Notes: generated by a model not told the origin, from the sequence alone. Positions 17,452 to 40,249 are shown, counted from the first letter of the stretch. The stretch: DNA of 43,098 nucleotides from Actinomycetota bacterium (GCA_013205455.1 JABMMO010000004.1:1-43098), one strand, 5' to 3'. Translations and numbers: made by a program.

Positions 17452-18804
<1,353 letters not shown>

Positions 18805-21322: not shown

Positions 21323-22203
21323 TGACAAATCCGAGAGTTAGATTGCACAATGCAAAAGTTGGCATAGTTCCATTGAATTGGAAATATGATCCAAACCAAA
21401 AAGAGAAATTCCTTTCAGAAATTGCGCAATATGGTTTTGCAGGAATTCAAGTTTCAGGTGAACAAGCCGAATCCTCGGAATTTCGCGAGTTGATGAAAAA
21501 ATATAACGTTGCGCCTGCCGAACAATATTTGCCAATTAAATGTAATGAGGATGGTCTGCTGCCAGGAGCCGAAGCCGAAGCTGAGTTAATAATTAAGCAA
21601 GCTGGGGGTGCTGGCGTTGAAATGATCGTCTTTGCGGCGGATGGCTCCGAAGATCGCGACCGGAGCGCTGGAAATGCGGATAACGGTCCCGGACTTTCCG
21701 AAATGGGATTTAAAGTTATGGCCGAATTTGTGGAGCGCCATGCGGCAGTTGCAGCAACGCACGGAATGAAATCTTCATTTCATCCACATGGTGCTACTTA
21801 TATTGAAACTCCGCGTGAAACTAAGAAGCTAATGGCGATGTTAAGTGAAAAAATTGGGCTCTGTTTAGATGTTGGACATTGGATTGTTGGCGGCGGCGAT
21901 CCAGTTCTAGCGGTAGCCGAATATGGCGATCGGATTTCACATGTTCACGTAAAAGATGTGAGCGGCGATGTGTTGGCAAAAATGATCTCAAAAGAAGTTG
22001 AAACCATGGGTTTTGCCGTTGATGAATTAAAACTCTTTGTTCCAGCTGGCACCGGTCTATTAAAAGTTAAAGAGTTATTTATTGCGCTCGATAAATTAAA
22101 TTATTCTGGATGGTTAATGAGCGAACAGGACACTGCTTGGGAGCCTTCGCAAGAAGCCTCTGCGGTGTCAATGGCCAATATCCAAGCTGCGTTAACTAGC
22201 TAA
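21322..22203 (+). CDS. Xylose-isomerase-like TIM-barrel protein (sugar phosphate isomerase/epimerase; IolE-like paralog 1)
   Basis: The start overlaps the GH63-like stop by 1 nt (TAATG). Blocks GIVPLNW, FHPHGATYIET, LDVGHWIVGGGDP, HVHVKDV, GWLMSEQD parallel B. subtilis IolE-type proteins. Confidence 0.7.
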   Translation: MTNPRVRLHNAKVGIVPLNWKYDPNQKEKFLSEIAQYGFAGIQVSGEQAESSEFRELMKKYNVAPAEQYLPIKCNEDGLLPGAEAEAELIIKQAGGAGVEMIVFAADGSEDRDRSAGNADNGPGLSEMGFKVMAEFVERHAAVAATHGMKSSFHPHGATYIETPRETKKLMAMLSEKIGLCLDVGHWIVGGGDPVLAVAEYGDRISHVHVKDVSGDVLAKMISKEVETMGFAVDELKLFVPAGTGLLKVKELFIALDKLNYSGWLMSEQDTAWEPSQEASAVSMANIQAALTS

Positions 22204-24029
22204 AACTTTCGCTGGGCTTTCTTCCCATCAATTAATTTAGCACGAGCTTCTTGAATTGATTTCTTATCAGAAACTTCAGGAATACCAACTTCCCAGAATG
22301 CGCCACCTTCGGTCCAAGTAGTTGGAGCAGTGTCGATAACAATTACTACAACTTCTTTAGAGTCAGCATTTGCCAGTAATTGCTTTGTTAGTTCTGAAAT
22401 TGAAGTAACTCGATGGGTATTAGCTCCCATAGATTTTGCATGAGCAACAAAATCGACCCTGGCAGCAGATTCATTTTCAGTAATCATGGTTCTAAATGAA
22501 GCTGCGCCATTTCCAGTTTGCAACCTTGAGATCACGGCGAAGCCACCGTTATCGCAGAGTATTAAAGTCAATGGATATCCATGGAGTACGGCGCTATAAA
22601 TATCCGAATTGAGCATCATGTAAGAACCATCGCCGGTCATTGCAATGACTCGGCCGGTTTTCTTCATATCTTTTTGCGCAATTGCAGCTCCGAATGCGCC
22701 GCTGATTTCATAGCCCATGCATGAAAAACCATATTCACAATCAAATGATGCGATTGATTTAGCAAGCCAATTGTTATTTAACTCGCCGGGTAAACCTCCA
22801 GCTGCCGTTAATACATAATCTTCAGGTCGAGCAGTTTCATTAGCCGCAATTACAACTTGGGCATAAGTTGGTAAATCGGACTTCAATTTTTCGCGGCTAG
22901 TGCGTAATACCACGTTGCTATTTTTTAACGATTTAGCTCGAGCGATCCAATTCGCTCTATTAGTAGGTTTAACTTGAATGCGTAGCTCTGAAATCGTGGC
23001 CAGCGCATCGCCCACCACAGCGATTGCACGTCGTTTTGTAGCATCAAATCGAGCGGCATTTATAGCGACGATATCTTTATCTCCAAATAAGGTCCAAGAA
23101 CCAGTTGTGAAATCTTGCAACCGAGTTCCGATTGCAATAATTAAATCGGATTCACTTACCAATTCATTAACTGGATCTGAGCCAGTAACACCTAGTGGGC
23201 CAACAAGCAGGGGATCATTCCACGGGAGCGAAGATTTTCCTGCCATAGTTTCAACTACAGGAATCTGTTGTTCTTTTGCGAAGGCTGCAAGTTCTTTTTC
23301 GGCAAGTGAGTAATGAACGCCACCGCCTGCAACCAGGATTGGTCGCTTGGCGTTATTTATCAGCGCAACGCATTTATTCAATTCACTCAAATCTGGGCGA
23401 GGTCTTGGAATTTCATGAATAGTTTCGTTAAAGAATTCTGCTGGATAATCAAACGCTGTTGCTTGCACATCTTGTGGCAACGCAAAAAAAGTTGGGCCGC
23501 AACTAGCTGGATCTAACATCGTCATCAAGGCTTGCGGTAACGCAGTTAAAATTTGTGAAGGGTTAGTAATCCGATCCCAGAATCTAACTACTGGGCGGAA
23601 GGCGTCGTTAACAGTGGTTGAAGGTTCACCAAAATGTTCAACTTGTTGCAGCACTGGGTCTGGATTTCTACTTTGAAAAGTATCGCCAACTAAAATTAAC
23701 ATCGGTAATCGATTTGCTAACGCAGTTCCGGCTGCAGTAACCACATTTAGCGCACCTGGTCCGATTGAAGTTGTTACTACCATGCACTGTTGGCGGCGCA
23801 TTGCTTTCGCATAAGCTACAGCAGCTAAACCCATGCCTTCTTCACTCTGGCCACGGAATGTTTTCATCTCATTTTGTGAATCAAAGAGCGCATCACCAAG
23901 ACTTAACGCATTGCCATGTCCAAAAATTGCAAATGTTCCAGCAAAGTAAGGTTTAACTTCACCATTAATAATTATTTTTTGCGCGGTCAACCAGCGAACT
24001 ATGGCTTGCGATGTAGTCATCAAAGTCAT
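22200..24029 (-). CDS. iolD: 3D-(3,5/4)-trihydroxycyclohexane-1,2-dione acylhydrolase (ThDP-dependent)
   Basis: I chose the ATG at 24029, which forms an ATGA overlap with the iolB stop. ThDP/Mg motif GDGSYMMLNSD. Size and context (iolC-iolB-iolD) fit. Confidence 0.88.
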   Translation of the reverse strand: MTLMTTSQAIVRWLTAQKIIINGEVKPYFAGTFAIFGHGNALSLGDALFDSQNEMKTFRGQSEEGMGLAAVAYAKAMRRQQCMVVTTSIGPGALNVVTAAGTALANRLPMLILVGDTFQSRNPDPVLQQVEHFGEPSTTVNDAFRPVVRFWDRITNPSQILTALPQALMTMLDPASCGPTFFALPQDVQATAFDYPAEFFNETIHEIPRPRPDLSELNKCVALINNAKRPILVAGGGVHYSLAEKELAAFAKEQQIPVVETMAGKSSLPWNDPLLVGPLGVTGSDPVNELVSESDLIIAIGTRLQDFTTGSWTLFGDKDIVAINAARFDATKRRAIAVVGDALATISELRIQVKPTNRANWIARAKSLKNSNVVLRTSREKLKSDLPTYAQVVIAANETARPEDYVLTAAGGLPGELNNNWLAKSIASFDCEYGFSCMGYEISGAFGAAIAQKDMKKTGRVIAMTGDGSYMMLNSDIYSAVLHGYPLTLILCDNGGFAVISRLQTGNGAASFRTMITENESAARVDFVAHAKSMGANTHRVTSISELTKQLLANADSKEVVVIVIDTAPTTWTEGGAFWEVGIPEVSDKKSIQEARAKLIDGKKAQRKF

Positions 24030-24904
24030 TGCTTCACCTGCCAGGGAGCTCGGGGATCGGGAATTTGGTGCTTCCAACTATCTCTAAGCCAAGCATGGTT
24101 GGGATCGTCGCAAAAATCCATAGTGCGCTTTCGGCTCGGACCTGCGAGAACATTTAAGTAGTACATCGGATAACCCGGCATCGCAGCGCAAGGACCGTGG
24201 TAACCCCGCGGGACTAAGTAAATGTCACCATCATGAATAGTTACGGTCTCATCAAAGAAATCAGGATCTTCCGGCGCAGAGTAAGTTCGATGAAGTCCGA
24301 AACCCTCGCTATCGCCATGTACACTCGATATTTTTCCAATTCTAAAATAATAAATTTCTTCATTCTCAACATCGCAACCCTTGATGCCATCATGTCGATG
24401 TGGCGGAAAGCTAGATACATTGCCATCCGGAGTGATAATTTCAACAGCCATTAATTTTTCAGCGTTAGGGAATACTTCTGGGTGCATGAAGGGGCGAACT
24501 TCGCGAGTAGCCATTCCTGCTCCACGAATTTCTACCTTGCTTATTTTTTCAACATAGCAACTTGGGAAGTTTGATTTTACTGAAGCGGTAGCAATCGCAA
24601 CTTCTCCGGCAGTTTCTGTAATTATCTCAACCTTTTCATTTGATGCGATATATACCCAATCACTTGCGCCAGCAAAAACTCCAGATCGCCCAACTAATAA
24701 ATGTTCATTGCCGGAGACGTTAACTTTGAAATTTTGTAGGTTTAATGGAATTAGAGCTGCTTCAATATCTCCAGAAAAGTATTGAGAAATATCGGTTTTC
24801 CCAGCCGTGATGCTTATTACTTGTAATCCGGAATATCGCCACCCGGCCATTTCTGGAGTTATCGATTTAACGCCAGAGCTAAATGGGAAGAAGCGTTCGC
24901 TCAC
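24026..24904 (-). CDS. iolB: 5-deoxy-glucuronate isomerase
   Basis: Cupin-type protein with AGWRYSGLQV and FPPHRHD blocks. ATGA overlaps occur at both ends, with iolC and iolD. Confidence 0.85.
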   Translation of the reverse strand: MSERFFPFSSGVKSITPEMAGWRYSGLQVISITAGKTDISQYFSGDIEAALIPLNLQNFKVNVSGNEHLLVGRSGVFAGASDWVYIASNEKVEIITETAGEVAIATASVKSNFPSCYVEKISKVEIRGAGMATREVRPFMHPEVFPNAEKLMAVEIITPDGNVSSFPPHRHDGIKGCDVENEEIYYFRIGKISSVHGDSEGFGLHRTYSAPEDPDFFDETVTIHDGDIYLVPRGYHGPCAAMPGYPMYYLNVLAGPSRKRTMDFCDDPNHAWLRDSWKHQIPDPRAPWQVKQ

Positions 24905-25842
24905 TTTGAACGCTCCATCAATTCTCGAACTTGAACTTCAGTCGGCATTGCATCACTGCACATTAATTGGGAAGCAACATAAGCTCCAGCGCCATTTGCA
25001 AAGGAGACTGAATCTTCTGGACTCCAGCCAGATAAGAGCCCATGTACTACGCCCGCACCAAATGCATCGCCGGCACCTAAGCCACATTTAGTTTTTATAC
25101 GTAGCCCTGGAATTGCAGTGGCGCTATTTCCATGAGCTACCAATACGCCAGTAGAACCACCTTTAACGATCGCCAATTTCGGGCCCATGGAGAGCAAGGC
25201 AGCCGCGAATTCTGCAGCGCTAGAGTTTTTCGGTAAGCCAGTTGCTACCGCGCACTCTTCCAAGTTTCCAATTGCGATAGTTGCATACTTAACTGCAGCA
25301 GAAATATCTTTATGAGCAATTTCAGGCGAACTCCAAAACGAAGGTCGATAATCAAGATCAAAGATTACTTCGCCACTTCGTACTTTAAGCAACTCAATTA
25401 CAGTATTGGAAAGCGGTGTTTGTGAAAGGGTAGACCCAGTAAACCAAAAATATTTTGCGGATTGAACTGCTTTGGTTAACCCTTCTGAATTTTCTACTTT
25501 TGTATCTGGCGCGCTGCTATCGCGATAAAAAATAAATTCAGGGTTATCTGGATCTTTAATACCCGCAACCACAATCGGGGTCTTCCCAGTTGGAGTTTTA
25601 ATTACAAATTCTGTTGAAACGCTGAATTTTTTTAATTCGTCAATCGCAAATTTGCCGAGCGCATCGCTGGCAACTCCAGTTATTACTGCGGTTTTATGGC
25701 CATATCTAGCAGTTCCAATCGCAACATTTGTAGGGCTGCCACCCACAGATTTCTGAAATGTTTGCGGATCAGATAAGCCGTGACCTTCTTCTTGCCCATA
25801 TAAATCAACGCTAATTCGGCCAATGGTGAGGAGGTCTAACAT
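24901..25842 (-). CDS. iolC: 5-dehydro-2-deoxygluconokinase (PfkB family)
   Basis: N-terminal LLTIGRISVDLYGQ, SVGGSPTNVAIG, and C-terminal GAGDAFGAG ribokinase-family motif. First gene of the iolCBD operon. Confidence 0.85.
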   Translation of the reverse strand: MLDLLTIGRISVDLYGQEEGHGLSDPQTFQKSVGGSPTNVAIGTARYGHKTAVITGVASDALGKFAIDELKKFSVSTEFVIKTPTGKTPIVVAGIKDPDNPEFIFYRDSSAPDTKVENSEGLTKAVQSAKYFWFTGSTLSQTPLSNTVIELLKVRSGEVIFDLDYRPSFWSSPEIAHKDISAAVKYATIAIGNLEECAVATGLPKNSSAAEFAAALLSMGPKLAIVKGGSTGVLVAHGNSATAIPGLRIKTKCGLGAGDAFGAGVVHGLLSGWSPEDSVSFANGAGAYVASQLMCSDAMPTEVQVRELMERSK

Positions 25843-25916
25843 GTGTGGATTCTACCGATATGCGCGTAGCAAAGATATCCCGAGCGCTCCGATTATCTTT
25901 CTGAACGAGATTTTGC

Positions 25917-26699
25917 TTGACTATATACATGGAGATGCATTCAACCAGCGTGATGACTCTCGCCATTGATTGCGGCGGGTTATTTATCAAAGGCTCGGTT
26001 CTAGATAGCGCTGGCACGTTACATGCGCAGCCAGTGGCAGTGCCAACTCCATATCCACTTTCTCCAACTCATTTGATTGAAACTATTGATGGCATCTCAA
26101 AAGGTTTACCGAATTTTGATCGACTAACTGTAGGAATGCCTGGCATGTTGCGACATGGCGTTGTTGTGCATACACCTCATTACATAAATGCAAAAGGTCC
26201 ACGCACTCGAATTGAGCCAGAGTTAGAAAAACAATGGAAAGGTTTTGATATTCAACGAGCCTTTGCGGAACATTTCAAAAAGCCTGCAATCGTTTTAAAT
26301 GATGCTGAAGTGCATGGAGCTGGTGTAATTAATGGTTCTGGATTAGAAGTTGTAATTACGCTTGGAACTGGGCTCGGATTCTCAATGTTTGATGGTGGAA
26401 AACTTGCACCACACTTTGAAATGTCAATGGCGCCGGTACGGAGAAACACCACTTATGACACTTGGGTTGGCGAGACTGAACTCCGTCGTCTTGGTGATTT
26501 ATTCTGGTCGCGTCGAATCCGATTAATGGTTGAAGATCTTCGAAAAGTTTTTCATTGGGATCGTCTTTATATTGGCGGGGGTAATTCACGTCGTATTCGC
26601 ACTGAAGTTCTGCAAGTTTTAGGCGATGACGTAGTGATCGTTTCTAATACCGCCGGAATTTTGGGAGGCGTTAAAGCCTGGTCATTGGAGCAAATTTAA
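25917..26699 (+). CDS. ROK-fold sugar kinase, polyphosphate-glucokinase (PpgK)-like
   Basis: LAIDCGGLFIKG (phosphate-1), VLNDAEVHGAG (catalytic Asp region), ITLGTGLGFSMF, and C-terminal YIGGGNS...NTAGILGG. The start is uncertain: TTG 25917, ATG 25929, 25935 or 25953. EMSM replaces the usual ELGH. Confidence 0.7.
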   Translation: MTIYMEMHSTSVMTLAIDCGGLFIKGSVLDSAGTLHAQPVAVPTPYPLSPTHLIETIDGISKGLPNFDRLTVGMPGMLRHGVVVHTPHYINAKGPRTRIEPELEKQWKGFDIQRAFAEHFKKPAIVLNDAEVHGAGVINGSGLEVVITLGTGLGFSMFDGGKLAPHFEMSMAPVRRNTTYDTWVGETELRRLGDLFWSRRIRLMVEDLRKVFHWDRLYIGGGNSRRIRTEVLQVLGDDVVIVSNTAGILGGVKAWSLEQI

Positions 26700-27578
26700 T
26701 TGGATTTGAAAAAGCAATTAGCCGGCGCACCAATTTCTTGGGGCGTTTGCGAAGCAAACGGTTGGGGTTATCAAATTGAAGCCGACCGGGTGTTAACTGA
26801 AATGCGCGAATGCGGAATTACCGCGACAGAGTTAGGCCCTGATGGTTACCTGCCGCAAAATGCAAAAGAGTTAGCAAGAGTTTTAGATGGACATGGTTTA
26901 GATTTATGTGGCGCCTTCGTTCCGATTGTTTTACATAAAAAAGATCGCTTGAAAGCGTCCTATGAAAGAGCACGCCGCCAAGCAGAAGTCTTAGCCAAAT
27001 TAAATGCTGGTAATTTTGTATTGGCTACGCCAGCTGAAGATGGCGATTACGACTCTCGAGATCCGATGGATGCCGAAGCGAAGGCAGTATTTTCGGAGTC
27101 GCTACCAATGATCACTGAGATTGCCAAAGAATTTGGTTTGGAAATGGTGTTACATCCACACGCAGGCACAATGTTTGAAACGCCAAATGATTTAGATTTC
27201 TTACTAAATGAAACTGACATCAACTTATGTCTTGATACTGGACATATTGTGGTTGGCGGTGGCAATCCTTTGGATATTGCTAAGCGCGCGGGTTCACGAG
27301 TGAAACATGTTCATCTAAAAGATTGTGATGCAGCCGCGGCCGCACGGATTCAAAATCGAACTTCGACTTATTCAACTGAAGTTAAAAATGGCATGTATAA
27401 GCCACTTGGGCAGGGCGATGCTCAAATATCTGAAGTAATTCGCTTTCTTGATGGCATTAATTACGAAGGCAAACTAGTATTAGAACAAGATGTGATGCTC
27501 GATCAAGCTCCAGCAGTTGGAGCCGGTCCAATTTCAGCAGTAAGAGAAAGTATTGATTTCCTAAAATCTATACTTTAA
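26700..27578 (+). CDS. iolE: Xylose-isomerase-like TIM-barrel protein, probable inosose dehydratase (IolE-like paralog 2)
   Basis: The TTG start directly follows the upstream TAA, with GGAG 9 nt upstream. LAGAPISWGVCE N-terminus, LHPHAGTMFET, LDTGHIVVGGGNP, HVHLKDC, and LVLEQD near the C-terminal end. Confidence 0.6.
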   Translation: MDLKKQLAGAPISWGVCEANGWGYQIEADRVLTEMRECGITATELGPDGYLPQNAKELARVLDGHGLDLCGAFVPIVLHKKDRLKASYERARRQAEVLAKLNAGNFVLATPAEDGDYDSRDPMDAEAKAVFSESLPMITEIAKEFGLEMVLHPHAGTMFETPNDLDFLLNETDINLCLDTGHIVVGGGNPLDIAKRAGSRVKHVHLKDCDAAAAARIQNRTSTYSTEVKNGMYKPLGQGDAQISEVIRFLDGINYEGKLVLEQDVMLDQAPAVGAGPISAVRESIDFLKSIL

Positions 27579-27638: not shown

Positions 27639-28490
27639 TTAATTACAAGCTTTGAACTTCAATAACTCCGTGCCATTTAGATCAAAACCATCATCAGGTG
27701 CAACATGTAGGAATAGATCATTGTTTTCGCTTGTGAGTGCAAATGGATTTCGTGTCAGTACATGACCAGCTTTGCTGAAGAATTGAATTGGTGTTTCATA
27801 ATCTATTCGTCGGTTGACAAAGTCAACTATGGCCATACCGCCTAATTCATAATCGCCTAACCCATTTGACTGAGGCAAGTTGGCGATTCCACCGCAAATC
27901 ACCTGACCGTTACCAGCGAACTGAGAATCTTGATAGTCAATAAAACTACTTGGATTTTCCCAGCGATCGAGTTCTTTACCATCGGAGTTCCAAGCATAAA
28001 ACTCTCGAGATCCCCAATTTCCACCATATATGGAACCGGTCTCTGAGTTACTTAACGCCCACCCAATCGAATCCTTTACTTGAAACCTTTCGGTAACTTG
28101 AAAATTTTTTGCATCAATAGTTAACATCATGCTCTTACCTTTTGGTCTATATTCTCCGACCGGCACCCAAACATTCGTGCCATCGAAATCTATTCCACCA
28201 GGGTGGTACATATCGCCCGCACCTATGGTTATATCTTTTAGCAGTTTTCCAGCGTGATCGGTTACAAACATATGACCAAGACCACGTCCCGGAGTCGATA
28301 GCGTCGGATCAAAGACATTTAGGGGTTTTTCTAAAACCTCGACCGATGAAAGAAAAATGTAATCACCAACAAAAGCCAACCCTTGGGGGTGATGAGTTGA
28401 GAAAGCAAGAGGAATTCGCTCTACTAGCTCCCAACGGGTATGTCGATTTTGACGCCCTACAAGTTCATTAAGGGTTAGCGCGGATTTCAT
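27639..28490 (-). CDS. Hypothetical protein, beta-propeller-like, no recognisable signal peptide
   Basis: 283-aa ORF rich in Gly/Asp/Trp beta-strand-turn repeats (HPQGLAFVGDYIFLSS, GHMFVTD, YHPGGIDFDGTNVWVPV, GWALSN..GSIYGGNWG, LGGMAIVDF). I cannot name the family from memory with confidence. Confidence 0.6.
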   Translation of the reverse strand: MKSALTLNELVGRQNRHTRWELVERIPLAFSTHHPQGLAFVGDYIFLSSVEVLEKPLNVFDPTLSTPGRGLGHMFVTDHAGKLLKDITIGAGDMYHPGGIDFDGTNVWVPVGEYRPKGKSMMLTIDAKNFQVTERFQVKDSIGWALSNSETGSIYGGNWGSREFYAWNSDGKELDRWENPSSFIDYQDSQFAGNGQVICGGIANLPQSNGLGDYELGGMAIVDFVNRRIDYETPIQFFSKAGHVLTRNPFALTSENNDLFLHVAPDDGFDLNGTELLKFKACN

Positions 28491-28510: not shown

Positions 28511-28538
28511 TTGACGATGTCTGACGTACTGATAGTTT
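28511..28538 (+). promoter_or_regulatory. Candidate sigma70-type promoter for the ABC/GDPD-IMPase operon
   Basis: TTGACG (28511-28516), 16-nt spacer, TAGTTT (28533-28538), about 68 nt upstream of the GTG start. The spacer carries a TGACG-N5-TGACG direct repeat. Confidence 0.3.
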
Positions 28539-28605
28539 ACATCCTACCTGTTCGAAGGAAATCGACATCCGGTCTATTCCTTATTACTTGGAGGAGGCAC
28601 TTTTA

Positions 28606-29748
28606 GTGCGTAAAAATAAACTCGTATCAATACTTGCAGTAGCTGGTTTAGCAGTCGCCACTCTTGGCTTCACTGCATCCACAAGCCACGCTGCAGTATT
28701 TCAAGTTCGTTTGTATGTATCTGGAGATACTAACGTTGAAAGAATGTGGCTTACGGAATTAATTCCCGCATTTGAAAAAGCAAACCCAAATTACAACGTT
28801 GACGTATCTTCTTTTGATCTTCATGGAAAAAATGATGCGCTTACACTCGCAAAAATAATAGCAGCGTCAAAATTAAAAAGAGATGCAGGCTTTGATGTTA
28901 TTGAAGCTGGATTTGTTCAGGAGCTTGGATTAAAAGGCTATTTAACGATTCCTACAAGTTCTCGAATGCCAAATATCAATAACGTTCCTGCTTCGTTATT
29001 AGCAATGAGCAAGGGTGGAATTCCTTATCGAGCCTCAACAGTACTTTTGGCTTATAATTCACAAGTTGTTACAACTCCACCAAAGACTCTTGATGACCTT
29101 ATTGCTTGGATTAAAGCGAACCCAGGCCGTTTCACATATAACGTGCCATCAGGTGGCGGTAGCGGGTATTCATTTGCACAGACCGTTGTCGATAAGTACC
29201 TTACCGATGCAGAAATCGAAAAATTGGTAACTGAAGTTAATAAGCCGCTACAAGCTAAGTGGAAGCAAGGATTTGATTTACTCAAGTCGCTAAACCCTTA
29301 CACATACGGCAAAAATGGAACCTACCCATCAAACAACGCTGCAACTCTTTCGTTGGTTTCTAACGGATCAGTCGATATGGCAACAGTTTGGTCAGATCAG
29401 TTCCTTAGCGGTCTAAAAGCTGGAACCATTCCAAGTTATTGGAAGGTTGCTCAAGTAAGTGACCGATCGCTCACAGGTGGACCAGCAATTTTGGGAATTC
29501 CGAAGGGAACTCGCCAAGGCGTTGCGGCCCAACGTTTCGTGAACTGGTTGCTTTCACCAGTAGCACAGAACATCATCGTGGGTGGCACACTAAACGGCTA
29601 TCCAGTTGTTCCAGTGTCGATGTTGAGCACTGCTAACCAAGGTAAGTTTGCGGTTGGCACAGATGTCTCAAAACTACGCTCGAGCTATTTGTCTAGCAAT
29701 AATACTGATTTCAAAAATCAGTGGGCGCTTGAAGTTCCTGGTAAGTAA
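28606..29748 (+). CDS. ABC transporter periplasmic-type substrate-binding protein (secreted, not lipidated)
   Basis: I chose the GTG at 28606, 8 nt after GGAGGAGG; the track TTG at 28588 lies inside that SD. Signal peptide VRKNKLVSILAVAGLAVATLGFTASTSHA|A. No lipobox Cys. Confidence 0.8.
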   Translation: MRKNKLVSILAVAGLAVATLGFTASTSHAAVFQVRLYVSGDTNVERMWLTELIPAFEKANPNYNVDVSSFDLHGKNDALTLAKIIAASKLKRDAGFDVIEAGFVQELGLKGYLTIPTSSRMPNINNVPASLLAMSKGGIPYRASTVLLAYNSQVVTTPPKTLDDLIAWIKANPGRFTYNVPSGGGSGYSFAQTVVDKYLTDAEIEKLVTEVNKPLQAKWKQGFDLLKSLNPYTYGKNGTYPSNNAATLSLVSNGSVDMATVWSDQFLSGLKAGTIPSYWKVAQVSDRSLTGGPAILGIPKGTRQGVAAQRFVNWLLSPVAQNIIVGGTLNGYPVVPVSMLSTANQGKFAVGTDVSKLRSSYLSSNNTDFKNQWALEVPGK

Positions 29749-29753
29749 ATAGA

Positions 29754-30695
29754 TTGAGCGCTGCGGCTACAAACCAAGTCGCTAACGAGAGCTTTGGGTC
29801 GAAAGATCCAAAGCTCTCTGTTCTTGGTTTGTTCATGGCCTTGCCACCTATTTTGGTGCTCGGTACATTTATTGGATTTCCAATTGGTTTAGCTTTCTTA
29901 TTCTCAATTGGTTTCACCGGTGGCCTCAACGAAGTACTTTCAATTATTGGCCAAGATGTGCGCGGCCGAGATGGCAAGTTATTCACCCTGCAAGCGTATA
30001 AAGATGTAATTGCGGATCCACGTTTTGCCGGAGATGTAAAAACAACGCTAATAGTTTCATTTGTTGCGACAGTATTTGTTTTGTTATTTTCAACCGGAAT
30101 TGGTTTATTACAACGACTTCGTGGCGGAAAACTTTCCTCCGTGTTGACTGCGCTCTCGCTAACACCGCTATTTATTCCAGTAGTAATTTCTTCGTGGGCG
30201 CTCTATACCTTTTATGGTAGCGCTGGCCTCTATCGCACTATTTTTCATTCGTTTGGTATCGATGTTCCACAGATAACATCAACGATGCTTGCTGTTATTA
30301 TTGGTTCAATCTGGGTCTCGTTGCCGTTCGCGACATTAATGATAACTTCAGGATTACAATCTGTACCCAATGCTTTAATCGAAGCTGCCCAAGATGCTGG
30401 CGCGAGTTTAATTACCATTATTAGAACGGTTATGTTGCCGTTAGCTTTGATTCCGATAATTATTGCTCTCACATTCACTTCTATCGGCATCTTAGGTTCA
30501 TTCACAGTTCCATTTTTCTTAGGAGCAAATCAGCCAACTATGTTTGGCGTAGAAATCACCAACTTCTTCTCTGTCTATAATCGACCACAACAGTCGATAG
30601 TTATGGCGTTTATTGTTTTTGCCGCTGCTTCTGGGATCGCGTTCTTCTACATTTGGGCAAATTTTCGCAATGCTAAAGAGAGTGGGAGAGTTTGA
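29754..30695 (+). CDS. ABC transporter permease 1
   Basis: Six hydrophobic segments. EAA loop IEAAQDAGASLITIIRTVMLPL. The start is ambiguous: TTG 29754 puts the stem-loop inside the gene, while TTG 29829 or ATG 29835 leave it intergenic. Confidence 0.8.
   Translation: MSAAATNQVANESFGSKDPKLSVLGLFMALPPILVLGTFIGFPIGLAFLFSIGFTGGLNEVLSIIGQDVRGRDGKLFTLQAYKDVIADPRFAGDVKTTLIVSFVATVFVLLFSTGIGLLQRLRGGKLSSVLTALSLTPLFIPVVISSWALYTFYGSAGLYRTIFHSFGIDVPQITSTMLAVIIGSIWVSLPFATLMITSGLQSVPNALIEAAQDAGASLITIIRTVMLPLALIPIIIALTFTSIGILGSFTVPFFLGANQPTMFGVEITNFFSVYNRPQQSIVMAFIVFAAASGIAFFYIWANFRNAKESGRV
29787..29818 (+). promoter_or_regulatory. Intercistronic RNA stem-loop (14-bp stem, GAAA tetraloop)
   Basis: GAGAGCTTTGGGTC-GAAA-GATCCAAAGCTCTC gives 13 Watson-Crick pairs plus one G-U pair. 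It starts 39 nt after the SBP stop and is followed by the T-rich TGTTCTTGGTTTGTTC. Confidence 0.55.
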
Positions 30696-31537
30696 TGGCA
30701 AAGGATGTCCAGCCGCTCAATCTCTACACTAAATCAGTTGGTGTAAAGGTATTACTATCACTTTTCTCGGGCTTCATGCTGCTTTTGATCGTAGGACCAT
30801 TGCTCTGGTTAGCAATACATGCATTTGCAACCGAGTGGTTATTCCCTAGTTATAAGCCGAAAGGCTGGACGCTGGATTGGTTCCGTAAAGTATTTGAGGT
30901 TCCAACTCTTGTTGACGCAATGAAAACCTCATTAATTATTTCTCCCATAGTTGTATTACTTTCTGCAGTTATTTGTTTACCAGCCGCTTATGCATCAGCC
31001 AGATACAACTATTGGGGTCGCAAATCTTTTTTAATTATAATGTTTGCATCAAATGCTTTTCCTAAAATTGGGTTATTTGCAACCATTGCAACACTTTATT
31101 ATTTCTTAAACTTGATGGGCACGCTTGTTGGTGTAATTATTATTCAAGTACTAGGGACTATTATTTTCATGACTTGGATTCCAGCTGCGGCCTTTGCAGC
31201 AGTGCCAAAATCCTTAGAAGAAGCAGCCCGCGATGCTGGCGCTGGCAAGTTCCGGGTTTTCCGTACCATCACGTTAAAAATGGCAATGCCCGGAATTTTA
31301 GTAGCAATGGTCATGTCGTTCATTTATGCATTTGATGAAGCCCAAGGAACATTCTTGATTGGCGCGCCAACTATCTACACCATGCCAACTGCGATGTATG
31401 CGATTGTCGAAACTTACCCAATTCAAGTTACTGCAGTATTTTCGATACTTTTAACGATCCCATCAGTTCTTCTAATAGGTTTAGCACGTAAGCACATCAT
31501 CGGTGGCCAATTGGCTGAAGGTTTCCAGATCAAATGA
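30695..31537 (+). CDS. ABC transporter permease 2
   Basis: The ATG at 30695 overlaps the upstream TGA by 1 nt (TGATG), with GGGAGAG upstream. EAA loop LEEAARDAGAGKFRVFRTITLKMAMPG. Confidence 0.85.
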   Translation: MAKDVQPLNLYTKSVGVKVLLSLFSGFMLLLIVGPLLWLAIHAFATEWLFPSYKPKGWTLDWFRKVFEVPTLVDAMKTSLIISPIVVLLSAVICLPAAYASARYNYWGRKSFLIIMFASNAFPKIGLFATIATLYYFLNLMGTLVGVIIIQVLGTIIFMTWIPAAAFAAVPKSLEEAARDAGAGKFRVFRTITLKMAMPGILVAMVMSFIYAFDEAQGTFLIGAPTIYTMPTAMYAIVETYPIQVTAVFSILLTIPSVLLIGLARKHIIGGQLAEGFQIK

Positions 31538-31556
31538 TGAAAGCGAGTAGATAGCA

Positions 31557-32573
31557 ATGGCTAATCAAAGTGGAGAAGGTCTCGAGCTAGTCGGCCTCCG
31601 CAAAATATTAGGTGGTCGAGTAATCATCGATGACTTAAACCTTGTAGTTAACAAGGGCGAGATGGTTTCACTGCTCGGTCCATCAGGTTGCGGCAAGACC
31701 ACGACACTTCGCATGATTGCTGGATTTTTAATTCCGGAATCTGGAAAAGTTTTCTTAGCCGGGAAAGATGTAACTGAAATTGGACCAGAAAAGCGCCCGA
31801 GCGCAATGGTTTTCCAAAATTATGCGCTCTGGCCACACATGACCGTTTTTAAGAACGTTGCATATCCGCTCAAGGTAAGAAAAATGTCGAAGTCCGAGAT
31901 TGAAAAACGAGTACACGATGTCCTAGAAATGGTGAACTTAATGCACCATAAAGATTCGCGCCCAGCTCAAATTTCTGGCGGCGAACAACAACGTGTTGCA
32001 CTTGCTCGAGCTTTAGTTCAAGAGCCAGACATTCTCTTGCTCGATGAACCACTTTCTAATCTTGATGCAAAGCTCCGCGTTAAAGTTCGTGAAGATATTC
32101 GCGAACTGCAACGCCGGCTCGGCATTACCACGGTAATTGTGACCCATGATCAAGATGAAGCGCTATCTATTTCAGATCGAATTGCTGTTATGAATGAAGG
32201 ACGCATTGAACAATTTAGTACGCCACAGGAGCTTTATGATGCGCCACAAACTGAATATGTAGCTAACTTTATTGGCTCACTAAACCGCGTTACTGGATCA
32301 TTCGAAAACGGTGCGATTTCTGCTGGCAGTGATGTGATCGGAATTCGCCCTGAGGATGTTTTCTTTAGCAAAAACCAAATACCTGGCAGCGTTGCTGCGA
32401 CCGTTACTTTGGTTGTGCCGCGTGGTCATTTCTATGAAGTCTATTTAAAACGAAACGATGCAGAGTTGAGAGCATTTGTTTCCAGTGAAGTACCTAAGGC
32501 TGGCGATGCCGGTTTTGCTAACATCACTAAAGCGCTGATTTATCGGGATGGCAAGCTAGTAAGAACTGCTTAA
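31557..32573 (+). CDS. ABC transporter ATP-binding protein with C-terminal regulatory (TOBE-like) domain
   Basis: Walker A GPSGCGKTT, signature ISGGEQQRVALARAL, Walker B ILLLDEPLSNLD, H-loop VTHDQDEA. About 100 extra C-terminal residues. Confidence 0.92.
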   Translation: MANQSGEGLELVGLRKILGGRVIIDDLNLVVNKGEMVSLLGPSGCGKTTTLRMIAGFLIPESGKVFLAGKDVTEIGPEKRPSAMVFQNYALWPHMTVFKNVAYPLKVRKMSKSEIEKRVHDVLEMVNLMHHKDSRPAQISGGEQQRVALARALVQEPDILLLDEPLSNLDAKLRVKVREDIRELQRRLGITTVIVTHDQDEALSISDRIAVMNEGRIEQFSTPQELYDAPQTEYVANFIGSLNRVTGSFENGAISAGSDVIGIRPEDVFFSKNQIPGSVAATVTLVVPRGHFYEVYLKRNDAELRAFVSSEVPKAGDAGFANITKALIYRDGKLVRTA

Positions 32574-32578
32574 TTCTA

Positions 32579-34093
32579 ATGTCCACAAACTCAACAAATA
32601 TTTGCGCTCATCGAGGCGATTCCAGTCGCTTTCGCGAGAACACAATCGTTGCGATTAAATCTGCGATTGATTCTGGTGCAGCTGTTGTTGAGATTGATGT
32701 TCAAATTTCCAAAGATGGAAAAGTAGTAGTAATACATGACCCAACCCTAGAAAGACTTTGGGGTTTAGATAGGAATGTTTCCGAAGTTAATTGGTCCGAA
32801 ATTTCTGAGCTTGGCGCAGCCGAGAATAAAATACCGCTGCTTTCCGATGTATTGCCGCTCTTTGAGAACTCTAAATCAGTTTTGATGATAGATATGGGAG
32901 AGAGTGGTCCCGCAAAATTAGCTTTTGAAGTTGCGTCAAAGAGCAACGCAAAGATTTACTGGTGTGGCGACTTAGAAGGCATGCGTATCATTCGCTCACT
33001 CTCAGAGAGTGCGAATATCTGGATGCCGTGGGATGTCAATGCAACAGTGACTGCCGCTGATATTGTTGAACTAAAACCAACTTTCATAAATTACCATTAT
33101 TCATTCTTAACCAAGAGCAAAGTCGAAGCTACTCACGCACTTGGCTGCAAAGTATCAATTTGGACTGTTGATGATGAAGCCACAATGCGTTGGGCAAAAG
33201 CTATTGGAATCGATTCTGTTACAACAAACGAGTTAGCGCTATTGCAGCGAGTACTTAGTGAACCGCCATTAATTTCTAAAAATGAGAAAAAGGCAGCAGA
33301 TATCGATCTTGATCGTGCGCTAATAGTCGCGCGAGATCTTGGAAAATGGGCGATTCTGGTGGCAAAATCGATGGACCCAGGAAAAATTGAATTGAAAGAA
33401 AATCCTGCCGATATCGTTACTGAAATTGATGTGATGATTGAAGCCCATGTTCGAGAAGTAATCTCTGCTAATTTTCCTGGCCATAATTTCGTGGGCGAGG
33501 AGATGGGGGGCACTTATCTTGCCGAAACACCAGCTTGGTATTTAGATCCAATTGATGGCACCACGAATTTTGCAAATCGAATGCCTTGGAGTTCATTTTC
33601 ACTAGCGCTAGCCTTTAATCGCACGCCGTTACTTGGAATCGTGATTGACCCATGGCGTGATGAACTTTATGAAGCTGCAAAAGGTAAAGGTGCGAAAGTT
33701 AATGGTAAAACTCTAAAAGTTGAGAACTTAACTGGTGTAGAAAATCCGCTTAGTAGTCGTATAGTTTCGACGGAGTTGGCGGCTTATCAACCTTGGCCCG
33801 GAATGCTTGGCTTACTTGAAGAGCTAGCGAAGAACTTCTGCACGATGCGAATAATGGGATCCGGAACTTTAACCGTAAACGGAGTAGCGGCTAATCGTGG
33901 CGTTGGCGCAGTGATTGGCCAATTCAGCCCGATTGATCATTTAGCAGCGGTAATAATTGTGCATGAAGCGGGCGGCGTTGTTTATGACGAAACTGGGAAA
34001 GTTAACTTATTTCCAGAGACTGGCGGAATTATGACTGCAACTCCGGCTGCTGCAGATGCACTATATAAAATCTGGCAGAAAGTTATTTCATAA
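32579..34093 (+). CDS. Fusion protein: glycerophosphodiester phosphodiesterase (GDPD) domain + inositol-monophosphatase-family (IMPase) domain
   Basis: N-terminal half: CAHRGDS..RENT, VVEIDVQISKDGKVVVIHDPTLERL, SIWTVDD, DSVTTNE (GDPD). C-terminal half: ADIVTEIDV, NFVGEEMGG, WYLDPIDGTTNF, IIVHEAGGVV (IMPase family). One uninterrupted 504-codon ORF. Confidence 0.8.
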   Translation: MSTNSTNICAHRGDSSRFRENTIVAIKSAIDSGAAVVEIDVQISKDGKVVVIHDPTLERLWGLDRNVSEVNWSEISELGAAENKIPLLSDVLPLFENSKSVLMIDMGESGPAKLAFEVASKSNAKIYWCGDLEGMRIIRSLSESANIWMPWDVNATVTAADIVELKPTFINYHYSFLTKSKVEATHALGCKVSIWTVDDEATMRWAKAIGIDSVTTNELALLQRVLSEPPLISKNEKKAADIDLDRALIVARDLGKWAILVAKSMDPGKIELKENPADIVTEIDVMIEAHVREVISANFPGHNFVGEEMGGTYLAETPAWYLDPIDGTTNFANRMPWSSFSLALAFNRTPLLGIVIDPWRDELYEAAKGKGAKVNGKTLKVENLTGVENPLSSRIVSTELAAYQPWPGMLGLLEELAKNFCTMRIMGSGTLTVNGVAANRGVGAVIGQFSPIDHLAAVIIVHEAGGVVYDETGKVNLFPETGGIMTATPAAADALYKIWQKVIS

Positions 34094-34106
34094 TAGTGTT
34101 TTGCAA

Positions 34107-35012
34107 ATGATCAAAAACAATCCGATGGTCTTGGCTATAGATGTTGGAGCTTCAAAAATATCTGGTGCAATTGTTGATAGAAACCTTAAAATTGTACATA
34201 AAGATTTAAAAGCAAGTAGGGATAGTGTCACAGGATTAGCTGATCAAAATCTGGATCGCACCAAGAAAATGATTAAAACATTGCACGTTATAGCAAATAA
34301 CGAAGATATCTCGATATTTAGCGCTGCAGCCGGCTTTCCTGAATACGTAGACTTAGCGGGCAATTTAACTAGTAAGGATCAAATAGATTGGCAGATTCAA
34401 CCTAGTTTGGATTTTTCACAAATCTTGCCAGTACCTTGGACTATTCAATCTGATGTCAGATGTGCTGGAATCGCAGAAGCTCGGTTAGGTAGTGGTAAGA
34501 ATGAATCTGATTTCGTCTATATAACTATTAGTACCGGTATCTCGCACACACATTTCATTGGCGGAAAGCCTATTTCGGGCTTTGATGGACGAGCCATCGG
34601 GTTCGGCGTAATTGAAATAGACACTGGGAGTGAAATTGTGCCTCTGGAAAATTTTTCTTCTGGCCTAGGAATCGCTCGTCGGTATAGCGCTATTACCGGA
34701 GATACGAATATTAATGCAAATTCACTATTTGCTGATTTTAAAAGCAACAGTTTGGCTAGAGAAATTATTGAATCTGCAGCTGCAATTTTAGGAAGGGAAA
34801 TTGCCATTTTTGGGAATTCATTGCCAACTAAGGTAATCGTAATTGGCGGCGGACTTTGGATGGGTAGCGAGATTTATCGTAACCTGGTACTAACCTCTTT
34901 TCAAAAAATATCTAAAGAATTGGGTTACAACGGAAATATTTTAAACGCCACAGTTTTAGATGCAGGAGTAATAGGTACTGCCATTTATGCTTTAGAAAGT
35001 GTTACTAATTAG
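34107..35012 (+). CDS. ROK-fold protein lacking the canonical zinc motif (putative sugar/cyclitol kinase)
   Basis: I chose the ATG at 34107, 13 nt after the upstream stop. LAIDVGASKISG, QSDVRCAGIAEARLGSG, ITISTGISHT, VIGGGLW, GVIGTA. No HTH domain and no ExGH/CxCGxxGC segment. Confidence 0.65.
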   Translation: MIKNNPMVLAIDVGASKISGAIVDRNLKIVHKDLKASRDSVTGLADQNLDRTKKMIKTLHVIANNEDISIFSAAAGFPEYVDLAGNLTSKDQIDWQIQPSLDFSQILPVPWTIQSDVRCAGIAEARLGSGKNESDFVYITISTGISHTHFIGGKPISGFDGRAIGFGVIEIDTGSEIVPLENFSSGLGIARRYSAITGDTNINANSLFADFKSNSLAREIIESAAAILGREIAIFGNSLPTKVIVIGGGLWMGSEIYRNLVLTSFQKISKELGYNGNILNATVLDAGVIGTAIYALESVTN

Positions 35013-35805
35013 GAGTTGCGGCGAATTTATCAGCAATGATTAACGCGTTGCTGCATTCAGCGATAATTGTGGCCGGCCAATCAGATTCATATTTGGTTGC
35101 CATAGAAATTCTTTTATAAGCTCGTTTTTTATCAGGCCCGGCCAACAACATAATTGCCTGCTTTGAAACATCCACTATCGTCGCTGGACCAACCGTAACT
35201 CCATAATTGGGCACTTCATCAAGTGATGCAAAATCTGGGAAAGTTTTTAAATTATCCTTGCGAGTTTCGACTGACAATGGTGTTATGCGAGTTCTGTCAT
35301 TTCTATCGCTTCCAACTCCGTTAAAAGCAACGTGGCCATCACTGGCACCTGAAGCTAGCAAAAATATATCGACACCTAATTTCATTAGGGTATCTTCAAA
35401 GGTCTTGGGGTCTCTAGCATCTGGAATTAGAACATTTGACATTAGAATCTGATTTTTGTGAGGTAAATCCCCATTTAATACATCTCTAATTTCATCGTAA
35501 GCAAATTTCTTACAACTGAAATGAGATTTGATATCGACATTGTTAAATGATGCGTCTTTACCTTGAATGGCATAGTCATCCATCATGGCAATCACCACAT
35601 GGCTTAAAGACTGATTATTTCTCTTTATCAAATTCGCCAACGCGCTATAAGTTGATCGGGGAGTGCGGCCACCGGGACAGCCCAGTACGAAAAGATTTCC
35701 AATGTCATAACATTTCTTGAGCTCTACAAAAACTAATTCGGCCGCAATTTTACCGAGGTCAATTTCATCTGATGCAATTATAGATTCTGATTTTTTAGAT
35801 TTCAT
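35005..35805 (-). CDS. Glucosamine-6-phosphate deaminase/isomerase (NagB)-family protein
   Basis: FVLGCPGGRTP, MMDDY, ASGASDGHVAFNG, TRITPLSVETRKDN, VPNYGVTVGPAT align by eye with E. coli NagB blocks (GLPTGGTP, NMDEY, GNDGHIAFNEP, TRIKTL..DTR, VP..ALTVG). Last gene of the minus-strand ABC operon. Confidence 0.75.
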   Translation of the reverse strand: MKSKKSESIIASDEIDLGKIAAELVFVELKKCYDIGNLFVLGCPGGRTPRSTYSALANLIKRNNQSLSHVVIAMMDDYAIQGKDASFNNVDIKSHFSCKKFAYDEIRDVLNGDLPHKNQILMSNVLIPDARDPKTFEDTLMKLGVDIFLLASGASDGHVAFNGVGSDRNDRTRITPLSVETRKDNLKTFPDFASLDEVPNYGVTVGPATIVDVSKQAIMLLAGPDKKRAYKRISMATKYESDWPATIIAECSNALIIADKFAATPN

Positions 35806-39031: not shown

Positions 39032-40249
39032 GTGAAGAATGAAGGTGAAACTAGTGCTGAAGGTTTAATATCTGATGTAGCTCTACAGATTTCAAAACTA
39101 GACGAATTAGTTCGAGTAGTGCTCTCCGGAGCAAGAAAAGGCGCAAAACCAAGCTTTGAGAGAATCGATATTCGCCCAGTACTACTTAAAGAAATTCCAC
39201 ACTATCAAGTACTTTCAAATGATGGGCGACAAACAACTACTAAGAATTACTTAGCTGGTGAATTGAAAATTGATGCCTTTTTGAATCAAGGATATGCAAA
39301 CATATTAGTGGAGCATCTAGCTGGTTCAATCGCAATTCAATATAGTAAAAAAGATAAGGCAATTGTGCATCGGAGCACCGGAAGCAATACACCGGAACTA
39401 TCTCATGATCGCATTAAAGAACGGTTACTCAAATCATCAGATCCATTCTTAATTGAAGTAGGAATTTCTGATAGTAAAGGCGTAATTAAACCTTCACGTC
39501 AAGATAAATATAAGCAAGTTGAAGAGTTTCTGAGATTACTTTGGCCAACTCTAACTTCCGCGATTGAGTCTGGACATATTAAACAACCTAGCCAAGAGCA
39601 GCCCCTTAAAATTGTGGACTTAGGATCTGGAAGCGCTTATTTAACTTTCGCAGTCCATCAATTCTTAACTTCACAGAACATCCCGATTCAAGTAGTTGGG
39701 ATAGATAACCGCCCTGAGTTTTATGAAAAGAATTCTGAGATTGTAAAAAGATTAGGAATTTCCAAAACTATTCAATTCAAAGTTGAGTCAATTTCAGATA
39801 CAACTGAGAAAAGCGCAGATATTGCGATTGCGCTTCATGCATGCGACACCGCAACTGATGATGCGATTTCTTGGGCTGTTAAAAATAACGCGAAACTGTT
39901 ACTAATAGCGCCATGTTGTCACCATGATATTCAGAAGCAATTAAAAGAGACGCCAGAGCCGTGGTCACTATTGACAAAGTATGGCTTGATGCGAGAGCGG
40001 CTTTCAGATTTACTCACCGATACATTCAGAGCGCAAATTCTTAAATTGTTAGGTTATCGAGTTGAAGTAATTGAATTTATTGGGGGCGAACACACACCGC
40101 GAAATCTTATGATTCGAGCGCTATTTACTGGCGCTAAACCAGAGCGCGAAGATAGACACCGGTATGAAGAATTGGTAAATATGTGGAAAGTATCACCTGT
40201 ACTTTCGAAGTACCTCGCTGCTGAAATGGAATATAGTAAAGATAAGTAA
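39032..40249 (+). CDS. Class I SAM-dependent methyltransferase, METTL25/Methyltransf_32-like, unknown substrate
   Basis: GTG start. About 190 aa N-terminal domain of unknown function, then SAM motif I IVDLGSGSAYLT, plus ALHACDTATDDAI and IAPCCHH, which are typical of the Methyltransf_32 family as I recall it. Confidence 0.65.
   Translation: MKNEGETSAEGLISDVALQISKLDELVRVVLSGARKGAKPSFERIDIRPVLLKEIPHYQVLSNDGRQTTTKNYLAGELKIDAFLNQGYANILVEHLAGSIAIQYSKKDKAIVHRSTGSNTPELSHDRIKERLLKSSDPFLIEVGISDSKGVIKPSRQDKYKQVEEFLRLLWPTLTSAIESGHIKQPSQEQPLKIVDLGSGSAYLTFAVHQFLTSQNIPIQVVGIDNRPEFYEKNSEIVKRLGISKTIQFKVESISDTTEKSADIAIALHACDTATDDAISWAVKNNAKLLLIAPCCHHDIQKQLKETPEPWSLLTKYGLMRERLSDLLTDTFRAQILKLLGYRVEVIEFIGGEHTPRNLMIRALFTGAKPEREDRHRYEELVNMWKVSPVLSKYLAAEMEYSKDK

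Follow-up and report, generated by a model that had tools for sequence, protein, structure and literature searches.

The window analysed here is a 43,098-nucleotide stretch of DNA from an Actinomycetota bacterium (GCA_013205455.1 JABMMO010000004.1:1-43098). Between 28.5 and 35.0 kb it carries a cassette encoding a substrate-binding protein (SBP), two permeases and an ATPase from an ABC (ATP-binding cassette) importer, followed by a fusion of a glycerophosphodiester phosphodiesterase (GDPD) domain to a domain of the inositol monophosphatase (IMPase) family. On balance we favour reading these five genes as a system for import and cytoplasmic cleavage of organophosphate diesters, with an inositol phosphodiester as the preferred substrate in this genome. 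That the cassette imports a phosphoester, most likely a diester, and hydrolyses it in two steps is highly probable; that the diester contains inositol and feeds the neighbouring inositol-catabolic (iol) pathway is a more tentative proposal.

In the mechanism that we propose, a membrane-tethered or secreted SBP of cluster D would capture a phosphodiester, X-O-P(O2)-O-Y, and a PotBC/PotA-type ABC translocator with its own ATPase would import it. The GDPD domain of the cytoplasmic bifunctional enzyme would cut the diester first and the IMPase-family domain would then dephosphorylate the monoester, leaving two alcohols and inorganic phosphate as end products. Here, glycerophosphoinositol or a related inositol diester would yield glycerol and inositol phosphate, and the released inositol would pass to IolG/E/D/B/C. 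DUF6454, a cytoplasmic beta-propeller, together with a ROK-family and a NagB-like protein in this clade, may contribute accessory steps.

Gene order of the importer and fusion enzyme is conserved

Six co-directional and tightly packed open reading frames (ORFs) occupy 28.5-35.0 kb on the + strand. The SBP gene (28606..29748) encodes 380 aa and matches SBP_bac_8 (89 bits) as well as SBP_bac_1/11; its start was refined to GTG 28606, 8 nt 3' of the ribosome-binding site GGAGGAGG, which gives a length matching those of its homologues. Permease 1 (29754..30695; 313 aa, PotB/PhnU-like) and permease 2 (30695..31537; PotC/PhnV-like) each contain a BPD_transp_1 domain, and the refined ATG of permease 2 at 30695 overlaps the TGA of permease 1 (TGATG). 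The ATPase (31557..32573; PotA/PhnT2/UgpC-like) combines ABC_tran with a C-terminal TOBE_2 domain. The fusion gene encodes one 504-aa protein with the cytoplasmic GDPD domain at its N-terminus (32579..33250; PF03009, 120 bits) and the Inositol_P domain, a phosphomonoesterase of the IMPase family, at its C-terminus (33308..34093; PF00459, 154 bits). The last ORF (34107..35012; PF00480, 91 bits) encodes a divergent ROK-family protein without a helix-turn-helix (HTH), and its start was refined to ATG 34107 in agreement with its orthologues. After refinement the junctions, 5' to 3', were 5 nt, a 1-nt overlap, 19 nt, 5 nt and 13 nt. Pfam matches of all transporter parts exceeded gathering scores, and the joint presence of SBP, paired BPD_transp_1 permease and ABC_tran ATPase genes identifies a type I (binding-protein-dependent) ABC importer. 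Purifying selection acts on all six genes, with dN/dS of 0.02-0.16 in comparisons with the two closest relatives; the ATPase is 98% identical in the closest relative, and the six-gene arrangement is far beyond chance because its order is kept in other species.

A one-genome-per-species scan, queried with the fusion-protein alignment, gave 79 loci, onto which the window proteins were mapped by tblastn. The fusion was present at ≥44% identity in 71 of these, and the order SBP-permease 1-permease 2-ATPase-fusion was found in every locus not cut by contig ends (58/58 loci); the remaining 13 were all cut in this way. The closest relatives were metagenome-assembled genomes of the acI lineage (Nanopelagicales), in which the fusion protein was 89-96% identical, and other matches were named Ca. 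Planktophila or Nanopelagicaceae. Carriers also belonged to the Microbacteriaceae (Agreia, Clavibacter michiganensis, Microbacterium, Humibacter, Lacisediminihabitans), the Micrococcaceae (Sinomonas, Paenarthrobacter) and the Intrasporangiaceae, and the same five-gene core was found in Arthrobacter, reached via DUF6454, and on a Streptomyces replicon in a plasmid collection. For the Acidimicrobiia relatives of the fusion (37-43% identity; L077-L081), no window gene, transporter included, was detected in the available flanks, where ORF calling is ambiguous in the high-GC DNA. The loci lay in varied contexts, most of them without iol-type neighbours, and the conserved unit is therefore the first five genes, a self-contained module for which inositol is at most one context. 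Contexts without iol genes, where the flanks were annotated, comprised purine-biosynthesis genes (in a second acI clade), a rib operon and unrelated genes (Agreia, Arthrobacter).

An earlier note on this DNA had described six packed genes with these domains as a single operon, in which the importer has an ATPase of its own and an SBP without lipidation, and had grouped the transporter with the GDPD-IMPase enzyme in one candidate scavenging module. The ORFs, Pfam domains and junctions bore out the first description, the SBP leader contained no Cys, and the 58/58 linkage supported the grouping of transporter and enzyme.

Homologues of the substrate-binding protein recur beside phosphoesterases

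The N-terminus of the SBP resembles a Sec-type signal or anchor without a lipobox, while the SBP of the neighbouring CUT1 operon, at 38927, has the lipobox LMITGC. Public sources label the cassette SBP 'putative spermidine/putrescine transport system substrate-binding protein'. We found no PotD/PotF model among its NCBIfam matches, and none by PDB phmmer. Its best NCBIfam match was PRK11622 (YnjB-like; 84.3 bits against a cutoff of 203), and matches to PhnS and thiamine-SBP models reached ~24 bits against cutoffs of 395 and 93. Sequence matches in the PDB were marginal (E of at least 3e-4; FbpA by phmmer, E = 0.027). E. coli YnjB shared 23% identity over 126 aa (BLASTP) and was rejected as a lead to the ligand, being too distant and itself uncharacterised. 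With an AlphaFold (AF2) model of the SBP (pLDDT 85.5), Foldseek returned only remote cluster-D relatives among the 50 matches listed (query-normalised TM-scores 0.54-0.65, 13-21% identity). Those listed included FbpA, PotD/F, a PhnS-like protein and AfuA; PotD/PotF entries had query-normalised TM-scores of 0.59-0.64 at 13-17% identity, and AfuA (4r73) ranked 31 among the matches listed (query-normalised TM-score 0.61, 17% identity). Classed by hidden Markov models (HMMs) and by predicted structure, the SBP falls firmly into none of the polyamine, iron, thiamine or hexose-phosphate binder groups and appears to form a cluster-D family of its own, a result compatible with the inositol-phosphodiester scavenging that the earlier note had proposed for the operon. 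Permease 1 gave weak matches to PotB, ModB and PhnU models, and permeases and ATPase together scored best against PotB/PotC/PotA and Phn models.

In other phyla, SBPs encoded beside GDPD or IMPase genes were 31-42% identical to the window SBP. The homologues from Deinococcus (36%) and Enterococcus (33%) sit beside a GDPD and a PHP-type CehA/McbA metallohydrolase, and those from Rhizobium pRL9 and Ensifer (31-35%) beside a convergent IMPase-family gene. A homologue from Agrobacterium vitis CG957 (31%) adjoins ROK, IolE-like and Gfo/Idh/MocA genes, and one on an A. vitis F2/5 plasmid (26% over 282 aa, E 6e-17) lies beside genes for GDPD, IMPase, a Na/Pi cotransporter, sucrose phosphorylase and alpha-galactosidase. 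Gly/Ser/Asp-rich segments were compared in the Deinococcus, Enterococcus, Rhizobium pRL9 and A. vitis CG957 proteins: GDTN (after strand 1), PYRGS, NPGxFTYNxPxxGGSG and WSD were common to SBP homologues of 27-36% identity, and the more distant A. vitis F2/5 SBP and YnjB lacked GDTN and PYRGS. Mainly because homologues of the SBP recurrently pair with phosphoesterases, we infer phosphate esters, diesters in most cases, as its class of ligand.

Both the Deinococcus locus (L088, a Deinococcus aetherius plasmid) and the Enterococcus locus (L089, an Enterococcus casseliflavus plasmid) link the transporter to GDPD and CehA/McbA and carry no IMPase; this pairing may represent an analogous diesterase with a different second hydrolase.

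A bifunctional enzyme predicted to act in two consecutive steps

The GDPD domain belongs clearly to its family (120.5 bits against a gathering score of 23.6), with catalytic and metal-ligand residues present, and H11-R12, E38-x-D40 and H53-D54 were invariant among the 23 homologues aligned. Its closest relatives were the short cytosolic GDPDs 1o1z and 2pz0. The second domain exceeded the PF00459 gathering score of 27 by a wide interval and conserved E307-E308, D323-P-I-D-G-T (to T328) and D453. The fusion protein has no signal peptide, and hydrolysis would therefore follow import. On Agrobacterium plasmids we found an ABC importer followed by adjacent but separate GDPD and IMPase genes, collinear with 95% of the fusion (tblastn); since the two activities are fused here and encoded by adjacent separate genes elsewhere, they would act in consecutive steps. 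Searchable literature on GDPD-IMPase fusions, DUF6454, bacterial glycerophosphoinositol transporters and acI with inositol contained no description of the cassette.

The cassette resembles the Ugp and Acc systems and belongs to neither

The E. coli ugpBAEC-ugpQ genes serve uptake of glycerol-3-phosphate (G3P) and glycerophosphodiesters, with a cytoplasmic GDPD. Like them, the cassette combines an SBP, two permeases, an ATPase and a short cytosolic diesterase of the GDPD family in one operon, and in both the diester would be hydrolysed during or after import. Unlike Ugp, which is a CUT1 transporter, the cassette has a cluster-D SBP and Pot/Phn-like permeases, an IMPase fused to its GDPD, DUF6454 as an extra partner and no Pho-type signal in the upstream regions searched. 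Its permeases scored 19-33 bits against UgpA/UgpE models with cutoffs of ~300, which places them outside Ugp.

A second parallel lies in the acc operon of Agrobacterium, in which AccF is GDPD-type, AccG IMPase-type and AccA a peptide/opine-type SBP. This operon encodes an importer (accABCDE), the diesterase AccF, which releases sucrose and arabinose-2-phosphate, and the phosphatase AccG (PMC4526662). As in the cassette, an ABC importer is thus followed by a diesterase and then by a phosphatase acting on the phosphomonoester product. The acc operon differs in the type of its SBP, AccA, in having separate enzymes and a plant-tumour sugar diester as substrate, and in being plasmid-borne and wired to quorum sensing. 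It was compared by description; the sequences compared were those of unnamed Agrobacterium operons with GDPD and IMPase genes. Among these, the A. vitis F2/5 plasmid operon encodes an ATPase, two permeases (one of whose genes is missing from the incomplete PLSDB gene table), an SBP, GDPD, IMPase, a Na/Pi cotransporter and sucrose phosphorylase. It shares with the cassette a homologous SBP and GDPD and IMPase in the same order, collinear with the fusion, and differs in its separate enzyme genes, sugar-catabolic genes, ROK-type regulator and traR; it is itself unstudied.

In transporter architecture and SBP fold class the cassette also resembles AfuABC, FbpABC, PotABCD and PhnSTUV. Identities of 13-21%, query-normalised TM-scores of 0.54-0.65 and the failure to pass any family HMM mean that no ligand can be transferred from these systems. 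The cassette works like Ugp and Acc and is a member of neither; its SBP family is another one, its two enzymes are joined in one protein, and DUF6454 and the stem-loop come in addition.

Inositol as the substrate, weighed against other phosphoesters

The window carries iolE-like, iolC, iolB and iolD genes 1-6 kb upstream of the cassette, as the earlier note had observed, and the CUT1 system, which is chitobiose-like, is the only other transporter of this iol island. Elsewhere, the cassette was the only transporter in iol islands or one of two (the sole transporter in L019 and L029). Unbiased clustering of all neighbouring ORFs ranked AP_endonuc_2/iolE-like genes as the commonest non-core neighbours (19 loci), followed by DUF6454 (14 loci), iolB (12 loci) and TAL_FSA, ROK and NagB-like genes (10 loci each); iolD neighboured the cassette in 8 loci. 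Inositol-type neighbours recurred in distant taxa, namely Lacisediminihabitans, Microbacterium and A. vitis CG957. We favour an inositol diester, glycerophosphoinositol for example, here because the iol island, in this genome and about one third of its relatives, has no other obvious inositol transporter.

For an inositol diester, a fused IMPase is useful only if the GDPD domain cuts with GDE3-like rather than GDE1-like polarity. Mammalian GDE3 (GDPD2) cleaves glycerophosphoinositol to inositol phosphate and glycerol (PMC3725514), so a polarity that makes a fused IMPase useful does occur in the GDPD family. GDE3 is an animal membrane ectoenzyme, unlike the cassette enzyme, and the two are likened by reaction, not by sequence.

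Several observations weigh against inositol, or against the cleavage that it calls for. Of the loci flanked by 4 kb or more to each side of the cassette (well-flanked; n = 36 loci), 11 had iol-type neighbours and 25 had no recognisable iol-type gene nearby. The earlier note had drawn its link to inositol from context and had counted wide occurrence without inositol genes against it; the prominence of inositol-type genes among the neighbours partly supports that link, and the 25/36 loci without them weaken it. The IMPase domain fell far short of the SuhB/IMPA1 equivalog model (NF008027, 101.9 bits against a cutoff of 332). Glu213 of human IMPase contacts inositol hydroxyls, and Ile or Val takes its place across the fusion family; the IMPases of Rhizobium pRL9 and A. 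vitis F2/5 keep the Glu, and that of an A. tumefaciens plasmid has a hydrophobic residue there. In the GDPD domain, the canonical E-x-K (NIEIK in 1o1z) reads D105-M-(G/E). Classical GDPDs yield G3P and a free alcohol, in which case an IMPase would be needless for freeing inositol. The fusion alone does not imply inositol, because GDPD and IMPase pairs also serve sugar phosphodiesters, as in the acc operon, and the sucrose phosphorylase and alpha-galactosidase genes beside the A. vitis analogue point to sugar diesters in that branch. With most loci lacking iol neighbours, a divergent IMPase pocket and this sugar-type analogue, rival explanations remain live.

The strongest of these, though in our estimate unlikely, is general phosphorus scavenging from glycerophosphodiesters and G3P in the manner of ugpBAECQ: the GDPD domain would free sn-G3P from any head-group diester (of glycerophosphocholine, glycerophosphoethanolamine, glycerophosphoglycerol or glycerophosphoinositol type), the IMPase domain would convert it to glycerol and inorganic phosphate, and iol genes would lie nearby by coincidence. 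In their order the genes mirror ugpBAEC-ugpQ, the contexts of the cassette vary and include purine and unrelated genes, short cytosolic GDPDs are the nearest relatives of the GDPD domain, the IMPase domain has lost the inositol-contacting Glu, and acI bacteria live in phosphorus-poor lakes. However, neither a Pho box nor any other shared motif was found upstream of the SBP genes, inositol-type genes are still the top class of neighbours and recur in distant taxa, and G3P is normally used directly, leaving no obvious need for a fused G3P phosphatase.

We consider it rather improbable that the substrate is a glycosyl or sugar phosphodiester, such as an agrocinopine-like compound or a fragment of teichoic-acid or capsule type, with ROK and NagB-like proteins processing the released sugar or amino sugar. 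The acc operon is a precedent, the A. vitis F2/5 operon adjoins traR in addition to carrying sugar genes, ROK is translationally coupled and always accompanied by a convergent NagB-like gene, and Clavibacter and Agreia are plant-associated carriers. Yet ROK and NagB-like genes were absent from 31/36 well-flanked loci, iol genes were present wherever ROK was, and no glycosidase is conserved with the core.

An importer of phosphomonoesters (inositol phosphate, or sugar phosphate as for AfuABC), in which the IMPase is essential and the GDPD activity a side reaction, has little probability: homologous transporters in Rhizobium and Ensifer do adjoin an IMPase-family gene alone, and AfuA is among the remote structural neighbours of the SBP, but the GDPD catalytic residues are invariant, the domain is kept in every actinobacterial member, and in Deinococcus and Enterococcus the homologous transporters pair with GDPD and lack an IMPase. 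Least probable is an importer of polyamine, thiamine, iron or 2-aminoethylphosphonate beside an unrelated enzyme gene, for which the public name of the SBP and the Pot- and Phn-like scores of permeases and ATPase speak, since the SBP itself failed to match the corresponding models, its PDB sequence matches were marginal and its structural matches generic for cluster D, and 58/58 linkage to the fusion gene is unexpected for an unrelated neighbour.

Implications for the acI lineage

Beyond import and cleavage of an inositol diester in this genome, a broader proposal, which we regard as speculative, is a hitherto unrecognised pathway that spans the Actinobacteria and has transporter homologues in Deinococcus, Enterococcus and Rhizobiaceae; in it, a dedicated SBP family would take up phospholipid head-group or further polyol phosphodiesters, the fusion would mineralise them fully, DUF6454 would be a third, new enzyme and the stem-loop would set the SBP:permease ratio. 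If so, part of the acI 'spermidine/putrescine transporter' capacity would be phosphodiester and inositol scavenging. Views of what acI bacteria draw from dissolved organic matter rest largely on annotation, and papers on acI list polyamine ABC transporters as a shared trait; this cassette may be among them. The cassette is probably misannotated as polyamine uptake. Nanopelagicales (acI) are described as the most abundant freshwater bacterioplankton lineage (PMC12817590), and if the cassette imports phosphodiesters, their inferred diet would shift from polyamines to organic phosphorus and inositol or glycerol carbon. A ligand class would thereby be defined for an SBP family without a studied member, and functions would be gained for a conserved fusion enzyme and DUF6454. 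Culturable carriers make the hypothesis testable: Arthrobacter bambusae, Agreia, Clavibacter, Sinomonas, Streptomyces and Planktophila isolates.

A conserved stem-loop lies within the permease 1 gene

A stem-loop with a 14-bp stem, a GAAA loop and a dG of -25 kcal/mol (29787..29818, + strand) lies 39 nt beyond the stop of the SBP gene, inside the opening ~25 codons of permease 1. Over the 130 nt that follow the SBP stop, the best hairpin reached a dG of -20 kcal/mol or lower at 57/60 orthologous loci, with a median of -29.8 against -14.4 in control windows, 16% of which reached -20. An alignment of 39 acI sequences showed compensatory double changes at 12/13 stem pairs. Paired cells made up 90% against 75% in shuffles (0/500 shuffles reached the observed value), the percentage paired being inflated by selection of windows for best fold; the covariation score was 0.567 against 0.284 in shuffles, 0/500 of which attained it, and slid controls had at most 58% of cells paired. 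The stem-loop had no Rfam match, nor did Rfam at gathering threshold match anywhere in the window. We rejected the hairpin as an intergenic terminator, as in 57/57 loci a start codon lies upstream of it and the permease frame continues through it unbroken. The stem-loop may tune the SBP:permease ratio.

A plausible promoter on the + strand (28511..28538; TTGACG, 16 nt, TAGTTT), read from the sequence itself, sits in the 115-nt divergent intergenic region common to the SBP and DUF6454 genes; a consensus promoter scan gave no call at this position. The four divergent intergenic regions of the window had no 11-mer in common (≤1 mismatch). A search for enriched 9-mers in 57 SBP upstream regions found a top 9-mer in 8/57 only and neither a Pho box nor a shared operator.

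DUF6454 is a wider partner than ROK

The DUF6454 gene (27639..28490, - strand; PF20055, 189 bits) diverges from the SBP gene just upstream of it. It adjoined the cassette in 9/36 well-flanked loci, lay directly downstream of or overlapped the fusion gene in Arthrobacter, Sinomonas and some acI loci, and was linked to the cassette also in Lapillicoccus and Lacisediminihabitans. The AF2 model of its product is a beta-propeller (pLDDT 91.5); we found no PDB sequence match and no literature on the family, and because the structural matches were generic beta-propellers only, no function can be transferred to it. DUF6454 is the more general partner and probably a functional sixth member. It was absent from the operon that the earlier note had drawn.

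That note had counted ROK in the operon and called it degenerate, and both descriptions need correction. ROK was present in 5/36 well-flanked loci, all five with NagB-like and iol genes, and in 10-11 loci overall, each with a convergent NagB-like gene. ROK is a clade-specific accessory outside the conserved core, and it is translationally coupled to the cassette where present. Its Pfam score exceeded the gathering score of 22.9 bits. For the ATP motif DxGxT, the window protein reads DVGAS and most orthologues read D(I/L)GG(T/S), with the catalytic-type Asp and GGGLW kept; every orthologue lacks the ExGH sugar motif and all zinc Cys (CxCGxxGC) and keeps the ASKHA ATP motifs. Since it has no HTH, it is not a ROK repressor. 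A pseudogene was ruled out by a dN/dS of ~0.15 and by motifs kept across orthologues of 48-85% identity, and the protein is divergent rather than decayed.

The NagB-like gene (35005..35805, - strand; glucosamine-6-phosphate deaminase family, 107 bits, below cutoff) is convergent with ROK and overlaps it by 8 nt. It closes the CUT1 operon here, the lipoprotein SBP of which weakly resembles NgcE (chitobiose). The constant convergent pairing of ROK with the NagB-like gene suggests that their products may be a kinase-isomerase pair for a released or co-imported sugar.

In a Lacisediminihabitans metagenome-assembled genome (L038), the cassette is flanked by DUF6454, IolE-like and Gfo/Idh genes, and a second ORF that clustered with the fusion family follows the fusion gene (9953-12384).

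The iol genes and the surrounding island

Inositol-catabolism genes occupy 22200..27578, in the order iolD (-), iolB (-), iolC (-), a short ROK-like gene resembling polyphosphate glucokinase (+) and iolE-like (+). IolC passed its NCBIfam equivalog cutoff (303.4 against 300 bits), the IolE-like proteins scored 150 and 126 bits against a cutoff of 290 and the IolG-like protein 93 against 355. IolB matched Pfam KduI/IolB (212 bits) and IolD contains thiamine pyrophosphate (TPP)-enzyme domains. As IolA/IolJ candidates, ALDH and TAL_FSA queries from relatives hit nothing in the window, and no such Pfam domains were found in its ORFs.

The short ROK-like protein (25917-26699, + strand; 260 aa) resembles polyphosphate-glucose phosphotransferase (78 bits, below cutoff), and its gene, between iolC and iolE-like, was conserved in 9 related loci. 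The stretch 18824-22203 holds an MGH1/GH63-like glycoside hydrolase gene (glucosylglycerate-hydrolase-like, 152 bits), its start overlapped by the IolG-like Gfo/Idh/MocA gene (-), and then a second iolE-like AP_endonuc_2 gene. The pair of MGH1-like hydrolase and iolE-like gene recurred upstream of the cassette in several acI loci, a hint that some glycosylated form of inositol or glycerate may be used.

The 20-kb region of iol genes, cassette and CUT1 operon lies between two further genes, one argininosuccinate-synthase-like and one with a Methyltransf_32 domain (17455-18804, 39032-40249). In a complete Nanopelagicaceae genome (L012, 1325-3887) the same two genes are adjacent, just upstream of the cassette, and the bracketed region therefore behaves as a variable island. 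Two TerC-family membrane paralogues of 297 aa each (13121-14014, 15827-16720) flank a class I/II aminotransferase gene.

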